Shown here piece by piece: positions 3,449 through 61,345 of a DNA stretch of 64,000 bases. Below the pieces are notes generated by a model. It saw only the letters and a program-made list of their open reading frames with translations, searched no databases and was not told the DNA's origin. The DNA comes from Eledone cirrhosa (lineage: Eukaryota). Numbering within the stretch: the stretch's first letter is position 1; every line of letters begins with the position of its first letter. Both the position numbers and the translations under genes were made by a program. The DNA lies in contig OZ024742.1 in the NCBI GenBank assembly GCA_964016885.1, positions 33,914,001 to 33,978,000 of the forward strand, in the 5' to 3' direction.

Positions 3449-4120
3449 TGAACATTTTTTTGCTCTACATGGCTGAATACAATAAATGTAATCTGAGTTT
3501 TTCGAATATTAATAATAACATTCGATTCGTTTGCAATTATACAAACAAGCCTCAATTTTATAGCCATGTCAGTAGAATGAACACTTCATTCTTGCTCTTG
3601 TGTTGGCATGAGAACAGAACTGCAGACACTAATGTTTCTGGGTATCACCCTTCATCAGTACAACTCACTGTTCACCTGCCAAACTGTCAGAGCTAGTGAA
3701 TATATATGCTATTTTCAAAAATACACAGTGACTAATCGGCCTGATTTGCATATTAGCAGACTGGCTGATCAGTCAGATCTGCATATTAGCAGATCCACTG
3801 ATCAGCCAGATTTGCATATCAGTAGACTGGCCAGTCAGTTTCCGGTATACGAGCGATAAATGGCTGACTTTGCCAAATTCAAATAAAAAATAAAATCTTT
3901 TCGCGCTACATGGCTGAATACAATAAATGTAATCTGAGTCTTTCGAATATTAATAATAACATTCGATTCGTTTGCAATTATGCAAACATTAGTGTCTGCA
4001 GTTCTGTTCACATGCCAACACAAGAGCAAGAATGAAGGGTTCATTCTACTGACATGGCTATAAAATTTAGGCTTGTTTGCATAATTGCAAACAAATCGAA
4101 TTTTATTATTAATATTCGAA
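3449..4120 (-). mobile_element. Rearranged PLE-like/retrozyme element with direct and inverted duplications
   Basis: ~3455-3546 is repeated directly at ~3900-3987; 3984-4120 is an inverted copy of ~3502-3637. Contains an HHR and three 33-bp octamer-bearing repeats. Confidence 0.6.
3618..3665 (-). ncRNA. Type I hammerhead ribozyme (near-intact)
   Basis: Minus strand: AGUUGUA-CUGAUGA-AGGGU(GAU)ACCCA-GAAA-CA(UUAG)UG-UC|UGCAGUU. Stem I has 7 bp including G-U pairs; A.A mismatch at the base of stem II. Confidence 0.65.
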
Positions 4121-4121
4121 A

Positions 4122-4318
4122 GGGCGGTGGATTGTCAGTATCGGTGGAGGGTCGGACGCCATGTTTTGAAGCATAGAGTTACGTCCCTTTACGGTCTGAG
4201 TTCAAATCCCGTCGAAGTTAACTTTGCCTTTCATCCTTACAGGGTCGATAAAATAAAGTACCAGTTATGCACTGGGTATTTGTTGGCCTCGTGCTAAATG
4301 TAGAAACAATTATTAATA
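4122..4318 (+). mobile_element. MetaSINE-type SINE
   Basis: tRNA-like head (B box GAGTTCAAATCC) followed by the domain AACTTTGCCTTTCATCCTTAC.GGGTCGATAAAATAAAGTACCAG; many other copies in the window. Confidence 0.75.
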
Positions 4319-4499
4319 TTCGAAAAACGCAGATTACATTTATATATATATATATATAAATATATATATATATATATATATATATATATATATATATATA
4401 TATATATATATATATATATATATATATGTATATATACATACATACATATATATATATACATACATATATACACACACACACACACACATATATATATTA

Positions 4500-5330
4500 C
4501 ATTCATATGATTTATTGATTTATTGATATTTTATCTGAGTGACCCGAATCTTCCTGGTCGTAATTTTTCGGCCGCATGGGTGATTTTAGACATAATCTTT
4601 GTGTGTTGGTATTTTAACGATAGTTATAGCTCTGATTTATCTGAATTATTGAGCCCTCTGCCACTCATGTCGAATTTGTTTATCGTAAACTGGTGAACCG
4701 ATTTTCCGATACTCGATTATTCTACTATATTTAGCTCTAGACTTAGCTATTGACCAGTTAATTTTATTGTTCATTTTTTGTCGATTCTATTAAATGATGA
4801 ATAGCTCCTGTTTATTTTAACATGTCTATTGAGCACTCTTATTCGATATGTGATTTCCCACATTACCGAATATCTTTCGCGGATATAGAGGTTATCTCCC
4901 TTGCTGGACACCATGTGCGTCTCAGCTAGGGTTAGCTTTTTTATTCGTTTGGACAAGACCCGTTGATAAAGTGTTCCGGTCTGCCCGCTCTCTAGAAGTC
5001 TTATATATTTTTATGTGGGCTGATAGGGGGCGGATTAAGGAATTGCAGAAACCCAAGAAGCTAGATTTGCCATCTTTCTAGTGGGTCCGGATAAGCTTTT
5101 AACATTCATATGATTTATTGATTTATTGATATTTTATCTGAGTGACCCGAATCTTCCTGGTCGTAATTTTTCGGCCGCATGGGTGATTTTAGACATAATC
5201 TTTGTGTGTTGGTATTTTAACGATAGTTATAGCTCTGATTTATCTGAATTATTGAGCCCTCTGCCACTCATGTCGAATTTGTTTATCGTAAAGTGGTGAG
5301 CCGATTTTCCGATACTCGATTATTCTACTA
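4500..5330 (+). mobile_element. Partial tandem element (period ~603 bp) with a decayed HHR; PLE pLTR/retrozyme-like
   Basis: 4500-4727 repeated at 5103-5330. GAAACCCA...TGGGTC|CGG lies just before the second repeat, and CCG-TTGATAA at ~4959 is a decayed CUGAUGA. Related copy at ~26618-26908. Confidence 0.55.
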
Positions 5331-5899
5331 TATATATATATATATATATATATATATATATAAATATATATATATATATATATATATATATATATATATA
5401 TATATATATATATATATATATATATATATATACAATTAAGTTATTTGTTTTTATATATATATATATATATATATATATATATATATATATATATATATAT
5501 ATATATATATATATATATATATATATATATGTATATATATATATTTACATCCACCAATATATGCGCACCGTTTTGATAATGATGGTGTGATGGTGACAAC
5601 AACAATGAATTTGTTCTAAAGTATCAAATAGATTTTTCAAATAATTACGGTAGTAACCTTGATGGCCTATCAATCGATACTATAACCTAGCCATATGAGG
5701 AAAGAAAGCTAAAAAAAAGACAATTATGTTTACTTCCCTATAGTATCACACAGAGTTTATCAAACCACTACAACATCAACAACAAAAACAAAATAAATAA
5801 CACTTAAAGTAGAACATATTGGAAAGATAGTGTTGGTTTTTAGTACATTACGACATGCTAAAGTATTTTATTCCATTAGTCCGATCAACACACTCTCGG

Positions 5900-7071
5900 A
5901 TACATATGTCGTGTGATTACATACATACATGCATACATACATACAGATATACATACATACATACATACATAATACATAGATACATACATAATACATACAT
6001 ACATAATACATAGATACATACAGATATACATACATGCATACATGCATACATACATACAGATATACATAGATACATGCATACATACATACAGATATACATA
6101 CATGCATACATACATGCATACATACATACATACATACATACATACATACATACATACATGCATGCATACATACATACATACATAGATACATGTATACATA
6201 CATACATATATACATACATGCATACATGCAAACATGCATACATAATACATATATACATACATACATACATACATTCTTGCATACATACATGCATACATAT
6301 ATACATACATATATACATACATACCTACATACATACATACATACATACATACATACATTCATGCATACATACATGCATACATATATACATACATATATAC
6401 ATACATACCTACATACATGCATACATACATGCATACATATATACATACATACATACATACATACACACATACATACATGCATACAAACACATAATACATA
6501 CATATATACATACATATATATATATATGCATACATACATACACACATACATACACATATACATGCATGCACACATACATACACACATACATACATACAAA
6601 CATACATACATACACACATGCATACATACATACACACACATACATGCATGCATACAACATACATCTATACATACATACAAACATTGATACACACGTACAT
6701 ACACATATACATGCATGCAGACATACACACACACACATACATACACACACATACATATATACATACATACAATCATGCATACATACACGCGCATACATAT
6801 ATACATACATACAATCATACATACACACATACATGCATACATACATACAAACATACAGGCGTACATACTTACATACACACATTCATACACACATACAGAC
6901 ATTCATTCATAGATATATACATATATATACATACATACATACTTACTTACAAACATTCATACGCACATATAGTGATTTATTTATACATACATGTATACAT
7001 ATATGCATACAATCGTGCATACATACATATATACATATATACATATATACATATTTACATACTTGCATACA
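5900..7071. repeat. Degenerate (TACA)n microsatellite
   Basis: Seen directly. Confidence 0.95.
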
Positions 7072-60062: not shown

Positions 60063-60148
60063 TATATATATATATATATATATATATATATATATATATA
60101 TATATATATATATATATATATATATATATATACACACGTATATATATA

Positions 60149-60525
60149 TTTATACTTTGGGAGAGTCATGCTGCTAATAACAACACAAGCACCTTTCGGT
60201 TTTCACTTTAATTTATTATACATTTCCGGTTGGTTGGTCGGTTGGTTCGATAACCGGATAGTTATTTATATATTGTCAAAGCTCTTTCGACAAATAAAAT
60301 CCCAGTCAACAAGGAGGTCACAGAATGTGTGACGAAAGAGCTTTGACAATATATAAACAACCATCCAGTTATTGAACCAACAAACCGGAAATGTATAATA
60401 AATTGAAGTGAAAACCATCAGGTGCGTGTTTTTATTGGCAGCATGACCCTCCCAAAGTATAACAATATCTGTTTCAACACACGTTTTCAGATAAGAAATC
60501 TTACAAAACAAATTCAAAAACGAAT
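60149..60525. mobile_element. ORF-less fold-back miniature related to the 36-39 kb PLE family
   Basis: Inverted pLTR arms ~60151-60291 and ~60332-60462 homologous to the pLTR at ~38810-38965, with the same one-sided tail; junction at a decayed HHR. Confidence 0.75.
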
Positions 60526-60787
60526 TATATATATATATATATATATATATATATATTTATATATATATATATATGTGTGTGTAGATTTCTTATCTGAAAA
60601 CGTGTGTTGAAACAGATATTGAAACAGATATATATATATATATATATAACTTTGATAACTTTGATAGGTTTCGGCTAGTATTGGCCCAGGCCATGTCTAA
60701 CTTAATAGCACCACCTGGCGAAGTCTTACAAATCAGTGTTTGGGCACCATGGCTCACTCGAGCAGAGAGTTATTGTTTGAAGGGTAT

Positions 60788-60830
60788 ACGGTGCTGATGA
60801 TAGCTAACAAGCTTGAAACTAGTACATCGT
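60788..60830 (+). ncRNA. Minimal type I HHR
   Basis: ACGGUG-CUGAUGA-UAGCU(AACA)AGCUU-GAAA-C(UA)G-UA|CAUCGU; U.U pair at the base of stem II. Confidence 0.8.
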
Positions 60831-61302
60831 TCCTGTGTCAGTGTTGAACAAAAAGGTGACGTGGTTGCCTTAACACCGTACGGCATAAATTCAGGCTGTC
60901 AGTTTGTTTACAAACGGACAAAGCGGGCGTTATAATAAGCGTCCGCTAAACTGATACGTACATATATGTATGTGTACCTGTATGTATATATATATGTATA
61001 TATATATATATATATATATATATATATATATATATATATATATATATATATATATATATATATATGCATGCTACTGTACGTCTGTATACATATATGTATG
61101 TACGTATACATACATACTTACATTTAAGTAAGTGCCGTACTAAGAGTGAGAAATGAAATTTCGTTTTCATTTTATTACAACTTATCGTTTTCGGTGCGCC
61201 TGGCCGACTGCTCACTCGATGTGCAAATTAGGCTGCTCAGCCGTTAATTTTCATAAGGAAAGTATATACTTTCGAACGTTCAACCATCTGGCAGAAGGGT
61301 AT

Positions 61303-61345
61303 ACGGTGCTGATGATAGCTAACAAGCTTGAAACTAGTACATCGT
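61303..61345 (+). ncRNA. Minimal type I HHR (second unit)
   Basis: Identical to 60788-60830. Confidence 0.8.

Follow-up and report, generated by a model that had tools for sequence, protein, structure and literature searches.

We analyzed a 64,000-nucleotide stretch of the Eledone cirrhosa genome (G000:C3:33914001-33978000, here called the window, with positions counted from its first letter; the genome, G000, is a 3.0-Gb, microsatellite-rich animal genome). The window contains four elements in which an octamer is followed by a TATA-like box and, in three of them, by a hammerhead ribozyme. All four are copies of high-copy families of retrozymes without long terminal repeats (non-LTR retrozymes), which are hammerhead-carrying tandem repeats. 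Comparison with host genes leads us to lean slightly toward the view that their units carry a host-like promoter of the small nuclear RNA (snRNA) type, likely starting RNA polymerase II (Pol II) 16 to 27 nucleotides (nt) before the ribozyme core. Such a cassette would explain how these protein-free mobile elements are self-transcribed. The original prediction had reported the cassette and read it as a POU-factor promoter like that of histone H2B; its observation is confirmed, and its interpretation is supported in part.

An octamer-TATA-hammerhead cassette in four elements

The octamer and TATA sites claimed for the four elements are all present, and the order octamer, gap, TATA box, gap, hammerhead is real. 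Octamer and TATA box are 35, 34, 37, and 35 bp apart in elements 1 to 4 (33 to 35 bp if the TATA register of elements 1 and 3 is set 2 bp earlier), and the distance from TATA box to hammerhead core is 50, 39, and 41 nt in elements 1, 2, and 3. The window holds five octamer-TATA pairs, compared to a mean of 0.3 and a maximum of 3 in 200 dinucleotide shuffles, and four full cassettes, compared to none in the same number of shuffles. The features are the following.

Element 1
33268..34435, minus strand: retrozyme array, 2.5 copies of a 471-bp unit, units 99% identical; 3' end joined to (TA)n
34089..34096, minus strand: octamer of the upstream unit, absent from the original prediction
33960..34002, minus strand: hammerhead of the upstream unit (Rfam HH9 and descriptor); predicted cut after 33966
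33618..33625, minus strand: octamer ATGCAAAT with U6-like flanks (T before, TAG after)
33576..33584, minus strand: TATA-like box; predicted start near 33552, placed from the host TATA position at -30
33489..33531, minus strand: type I hammerhead with palindromic stem III; predicted cut after 33495

Element 2
60779..61646, plus strand: retrozyme, 1.7 copies of a 515-bp unit with an internal TA run
60788..60830, plus strand: first hammerhead, its promoter lost through truncation; predicted cut after 60824
61221..61228, plus strand: octamer GTGCAAAT, a mutated copy (the family reads ATGCAAAT)
61236..61241, plus strand: TCAG core, at the same distance from the TATA box as the TCAGT element of host U1/U2/U5
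61263..61269, plus strand: TATA box; predicted start near 61293
61303..61345, plus strand: second hammerhead; predicted cut after 61339

Element 3
3451..3988, minus strand: retrozyme, 1.2 copies of a 441-bp unit
3984..4121, plus strand: inverted partner copy, 5'-truncated, a Penelope-style insertion
3735..3831, minus strand: 33-bp triplication with octamers at 3810-3817, 3777-3784 (variant), and 3744-3751
3700..3708, minus strand: TATA box; predicted start near 3676-3678
3617..3666, minus strand: type I hammerhead with a 3-bp stem III; predicted cut after 3625

Element 4
29525..29814, minus strand: old retrozyme copy (family unit of about 330 bp) with a hammerhead core of about 34 nt deleted at 29661
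29747-29754, 29734-29739, and 29705-29711, minus strand: octamer, ATCAG core, and TATA box, respectively

The first unit of element 2 is 5'-truncated and has no promoter. The G in the octamer of this element is a private mutation, the family carrying A at a depth of 478,114/478,368 in run X1, whose depth and variant figures rest on contigs. The four elements had been called separate: their loci are indeed distinct, but elements 1 and 2 are homologous (64 to 66% identity over up to 610 bp, partly TA-rich) and are not independent cases. Likewise, element 4 had been said to lack a clear hammerhead, which is true of the window copy but not of its family. In most of nine other copies that we read, a hammerhead, intact or decayed, fills the gap of the window copy, and a public contig adds 34 letters with the hammerhead core at 29661. 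The window's copy of element 4 has lost its hammerhead through deletion. Two more hammerhead-like motifs flank it, at 29945-30005 and 29245-29290 (both on the minus strand), neither with an upstream octamer.

The elements are retrozymes

In Rfam, the window matched a hammerhead model only at element 1 (HH9, 32.3 bits, gathering score 52), the other matches being microsatellite miRNA noise, among the 150 of 234 matches listed. Hammerheads were therefore sought with a custom structure descriptor, which gave no match on reversed sequence and identified type I hammerheads at 33996 and 33525 (minus strand), 60794 and 61309 (plus strand), 3658 (minus strand), and 29999 (minus strand). These hammerheads belong to type I, and their cores are intact. 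In a set of eight related hammerheads of the element 1/2 type, stems I and II covary: 93% of the cells are paired, compared to 21 to 45% in slid controls, and 6 pairs changed on both sides; the rows being related, shuffle counts for this set cannot be read as probabilities. Folding energy alone gave no support, since the z-scores of elements 2 and 3 and of the 29999 hammerhead were only -1.03, -0.35, and -1.04, with -4.65 for element 1 and -4.43 for L120. Stem III is palindromic in elements 1, 2, and 4. Hammerheads with a palindromic stem III act as dimers (PMC4209133).

Elements 1 to 3 have one type I hammerhead per unit, and element 4 has it at the family level. The units are short (329 to 515 bp), tandem, AT-rich, and dispersed, and no frame of at least 150 amino acids (aa) was found over the retrozyme elements of the window. 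Each of the three families searched has more than 1,200 first-look candidates, of which 40 per family were scored: 1,433 for element 1 (scored copies 99 to 100% identical), 1,259 for element 3 (95 to 100%), and 1,508 for element 4 (other copies mostly 70 to 89% identical). A U6atac retrocopy (L172, G000:C19:7531494-7531617) adjoins a 5'-truncated copy of the element 3 family, head to head.

The cassette is confined to related hammerhead families

As a genome-wide rule, an octamer fixed upstream of hammerheads did not hold. Sampling 10-kb stretches at 120 evenly spaced places (1.2 Mb in total, mostly from C1-C4), we found 71 hammerheads, only 12 of which had an octamer (at most one mismatch) 65 to 100 nt upstream. 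The relation stands within the families related to those of the window (12/17) but not in other families (0/54), and the five octamer-less hammerheads of the former group look truncated or internally deleted. Extended flanks, a TATA box, and a hammerhead-like core accompanied 14 of the 108 octamers in the same sample, which by extrapolation would mean about 35,000 in the genome; we put the number of cassettes at about 30,000-35,000. The pattern octamer-N33-38-TATAWA had 43,449 matches in the genome, compared to 10,187 for the reversed control; the first 100 listed belong mostly to the element 2 family.

Six families have the cassette. Their unit bodies align in only 3 of 15 family pairs, the other 12 showing no match at E<0.05, and an alignment of eight representatives (mean identity 55%) has 18 invariant columns, 13 of them in the octamer or the TATA box. 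Because family L110 combines features of other cassette families, common ancestry together with purifying selection would be the simplest reading.

The cassette resembles host small-RNA gene promoters

We compared the elements with host promoters, assigning polymerases to the snRNA and RNase MRP genes according to established knowledge of these gene families. The set of RNA polymerase III (Pol III) type comprised five distinct promoters (U6 at L141, at L142, and in the C19 array; U6atac at L168; RNase MRP at L303); other array copies, 14 U6 retrocopies (L154, L155, L184-L195), and 7 U6atac copies (L169-L175) were left out as non-promoters or duplicates. The Pol II-type set comprised 14 distinct U1, U2, and U5 promoters from 30 loci, near-duplicates having been dropped.

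All five Pol III-type promoters carry ATG[CG][AT]AAT, which is the octamer or a one-mismatch variant, at -76 to -78 and a TATA box at -30; T stands before the octamer and TAG or GAG after it. All 14 U1/U2/U5 promoters carry [TC]CART (the TCAGT core) at -55 to -58 and an AT-rich box near -30, and no octamer was found at a fixed place in these 14. A CTCCCTT/TTCCCTT motif lies about 250 to 290 bp upstream of many host U6, U1, and U2 genes (L141-L143, L156, L158, L176-L183) and was not seen within 300 bp of host U5 or MRP. In some copies of the C19 U6 array (L148, L153), a repeat resembling a short interspersed element (SINE) is inserted at the TATA box and parts the octamer from the gene.

No sampled host gene joins, as most of the element families do, a U6-like octamer to a shorter gap and to a TCAG core that sits as far from the TATA box as in U1/U2/U5 but is weaker. 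MRP and the element 4 family share 15 identical bases around the octamer. Of 89 octamers outside the families, only 1 had flanks at least as U6-like as those of four element representatives, and 5 to 11 did so for the other four of the eight. The TCAG core lies 26 to 29 bp before the TATA box in the elements and 26 to 28 bp before the -30 box in the host genes; its matrix score is in the top 0.2 to 0.9% of random 10-mers in five of seven families or subfamilies, and U6 and U6atac score no better than background.

The fixed geometry in six families and the match to host small-RNA promoters give good support, at the sequence level, to the claim that each unit holds an internal promoter just before the ribozyme. 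The H2B analogy fares less well: host U6, U6atac, and RNase MRP share the extended octamer and TATA box, and host snRNA promoters appear to be the better model.

Copy ends and insertion

Certain 3' ends recur among the element copies, their 5' ends are scattered, and tandem arrays and inverted partners occur, all features that have been described for Penelope-like elements (PLEs) (PMC8557442). The common 3' ends are joined to (TA)n via TTAT/TAAT microhomology, 2 to 9 nt past T-runs, and sense T4-T7 runs are present in every unit. Since these ends lie beyond T4-T7 runs, the templates probably ran past Pol III terminators. Taking the genomic 3' ends themselves as Pol III terminators was rejected because they sit past the T-runs at (TA)n microhomology, and a depletion of T4 after the predicted start was no stronger than background. 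A clustering of 5' ends at the predicted start was also discarded: element 2 begins at about +2, but 5' ends are scattered across copies, and we attribute this case to chance.

PLEs are abundant in the genome, which contains 10,596 GIY-YIG candidates; all five long frames tested have a reverse transcriptase (RT) domain, and three of these have GIY-YIG. In the 50 GIY-YIG stretches scanned, hammerheads had no upstream octamer (one lay at a locus edge). The window has a PLE of its own at 36177-38864, with a 566-aa frame at 36461-38161 (minus strand; weak RT match, E 3e-4). Its inverted arms are 706 bp long, and its two hammerhead-like motifs, at 36255 (minus strand) and 38786 (plus strand), lack an octamer.

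In one of the 14 U6 retrocopies examined (L154, G000:C10:48072680-48072786, minus strand), the junction falls exactly on the cleavage site predicted for another hammerhead family. About 21 matching bases come after U6, and an inverted copy of the tail of this family lies in front of the retrocopy. This junction would record hammerhead cleavage in vivo. It resembles the U6/L1 chimeras that RtcB reportedly makes. Most of the U6 retrocopies L184-L195 run straight into recurring repeats that resemble, by eye, the tails of long interspersed elements (LINEs) or the heads of SINEs.

A model for transcription and spread

In the model that we favor, a POU factor on the octamer would help SNAPc to bind the weak TCAG core. 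Oct-1 POU and SNAPc are known to cooperate, Oct-1 helping SNAPc to bind (PMC9652321). With the TATA box at -30, transcription is predicted to start 16 to 27 nt ahead of the hammerhead core, which would therefore place stem I inside the transcript. Pol II would read through the T-runs and the promoter of the next unit. Hammerhead cleavage, by dimers in the case of a palindromic stem III, would then remove a leader of about 55 to 65 nt and set free a monomer with the promoter inside. After ligation of this monomer into a circle, a PLE enzyme would reverse-transcribe the circle into (TA)n, priming at several TTAT-like sites and producing insertions of one to n units. A promoter lying outside the transcribed part would in this way travel with every copy longer than one unit. 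The ribozyme would probably serve to cut monomers from read-through transcripts and not just for trimming at the 5' end; trimming of the RNA was the role originally proposed.

Copying the promoter needs an RNA that extends through the full unit to the next hammerhead, which would be hard for Pol III and easy for Pol II. We favor an snRNA-type Pol II promoter over a Pol III promoter because of the probable T-run read-through, the spacing, and the precedent of newt satellite 2 described below. In insects, small promoter differences decide which polymerase is used (PMC1761439).

Weighing the alternatives

In the main rival reading, the cassette acts as a Pol III promoter of the U6 type (type 3), giving a 230- to 380-nt RNA up to the first T-run, with leaky read-through producing rare promoter-carrying monomers. 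The extended octamer with a TATA box is the mark of host U6, U6atac, and MRP and of no sampled Pol II snRNA gene, and T-runs cluster just ahead of the next promoter. Six of eight representatives have no T4 in the first 200 nt after the predicted start, but this is a weak signal, 46% of background 200-mers being likewise free of T4. Moreover, all five host Pol III promoters have a gap that is about 4 bp longer than that of the elements, and T5-T7 runs persist in young, high-copy families whose copies end beyond them. We consider this reading rather unlikely, although well above negligible. An ordinary mRNA-type Pol II promoter of the H2B kind, with a POU activator and TATA/TFIID and without SNAPc, seems improbable. 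It would account for the perfect octamer, the AT-rich TATA box, the triplicated octamers of element 3, the read-through of T-runs, and the pyrimidine-A step that most representatives have at TATA+30 or no more than 1 nt away; against it, the octamer flanks match host U6/MRP and the TCAG position matches host U1/U2/U5. Finally, the motifs could be inherited passengers or RNA-structure elements, in repeats transcribed only via read-through from neighboring genes. The cassette families do look related, and most hammerhead families in this genome lack the cassette. However, motifs and spacing have been kept while alignment between the unit bodies has been lost, host small-RNA promoters also have the motif at a fixed position, and, among the variants listed, those of at least 10% in run X1 avoid the octamer and the TATA box, except for the window copy's own mutation. 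We judge this explanation to have a small chance of being right.

Several observations weigh against the snRNA-type Pol II promoter that we prefer. The TCAG matches are weak (2.4 to 6.0, compared to 9.4 to 14.8 for real U1/U2/U5), the core is not significant in two of seven families or subfamilies (element 1 and a relative), and we chose its position only after inspecting the sequences. The host octamer marks Pol III-type genes only (5/5 vs 0/14), which favors Pol III. The distal CTCCCTT-type motif was not found in the element units, nor was a clear 3' box: the best scores were 6.2 to 8.0 in seven of eight representatives and 11.1 in one, random scores having a median of 5.6 and a 95th percentile of 10.4. 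The cassette families probably share ancestry, so their shared motifs are not independent events, and one retrozyme family (L084; 8400-10000, a 311-bp unit in a hammerhead tandem) has no octamer; its promoter, if any, differs from the octamer cassette. No autonomous PLE sharing the element ends was found in the scanned GIY-YIG stretches, and a search for U6 joined to cleavage products of the cassette families gave one chance match, as did the control.

Relation to known systems

Coats et al. are said to have described, in 1994, a newt satellite 2 promoter made of an octamer and a proximal sequence element (PSE). Newt satellite 2 is a hammerhead tandem repeat with an internal snRNA promoter that is used by Pol II (PMC2220036). 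The elements described here belong to another animal lineage and differ in that the octamer abuts the PSE-like core, a TATA box is present, and the octamer is the mark of host Pol III genes. Both retrozymes and a hammerhead satellite with an snRNA-type promoter are already known, and this precedent limits the surprise.

Metazoan non-LTR retrozymes are likewise short, AT-rich, non-coding tandem units with one type I hammerhead each, coexist with PLEs, and have been proposed to spread via circular templates (PMC7229834; bioRxiv 10.64898/2026.07.22.740005). Their typical unit is given as about 300 bp, compared to 329 to 515 bp here. Here, the units have a defined candidate internal promoter matched to host snRNA genes, whereas the accessible text of PMC7229834 mentions a promoter for T7 constructs only and that of the bioRxiv report mentions none. 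The hammerheads in pseudo-LTRs (pLTRs) of PLEs are likewise of type I, with a palindromic stem III, dimer action, and tandem or inverted insertions (PMC4209133), but those of this genome lack the octamer cassette. The promoter of Drosophila Penelope is internal and TATA-less (PMC2377424).

Relative to host type 3 Pol III promoters (U6, U6atac, RNase MRP), the elements have the extended octamer and TATA box in common but differ in the gap (34 to 37 bp vs 38 to 40 bp in the host genes), in the TCAG core, which those promoters lack, and in the need for read-through. With host U1/U2/U5 promoters, five of the seven families or subfamilies appear to share, as a weak match, a TCAG(T) core 26 to 29 bp before an AT-rich -30 box; those promoters have no octamer, a stronger core, a 3' box, and (U1, U2) a distal motif, the last two not being clear in the elements. 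In the literature covered, which leaves out most subscription journals, we found no description of an snRNA-type promoter in an invertebrate retrozyme or of a U6 promoter of this kind with a proximal octamer.

More tentatively, and with doubt that all its parts will hold, the sequences may point to a hybrid promoter, built by a retrozyme superfamily, that joins the octamer of Pol III genes to the core and spacing of Pol II snRNA genes, is absent from sampled host genes, is copied through circles, and has seeded some 30,000-35,000 SNAPc/POU promoters independently of the newt. If so, this genome would show an invertebrate snRNA promoter switching between Pol II and Pol III through a difference of 4 bp.

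Animal retrozymes have been reported as highly expressed circular RNAs, and the papers examined do not state what transcribes them outside newts. The cassette offers a named candidate promoter and predicts where transcription would start. It also shows how an element that is not autonomous may keep a promoter outside its transcribed start, which linear SINEs cannot. A by-product is the promoter grammar of Eledone U6/MRP and U1/U2/U5, useful for guide-RNA expression.

Other features of the window

An exon-like frame at 18293-18925 (minus strand) has an ANF_receptor domain (E 4e-11), and part of the window therefore probably lies within a receptor gene. A LINE occupies 43726-49086 (minus strand), with a first frame of 632 aa and an endonuclease-RT frame of 1,153 aa.

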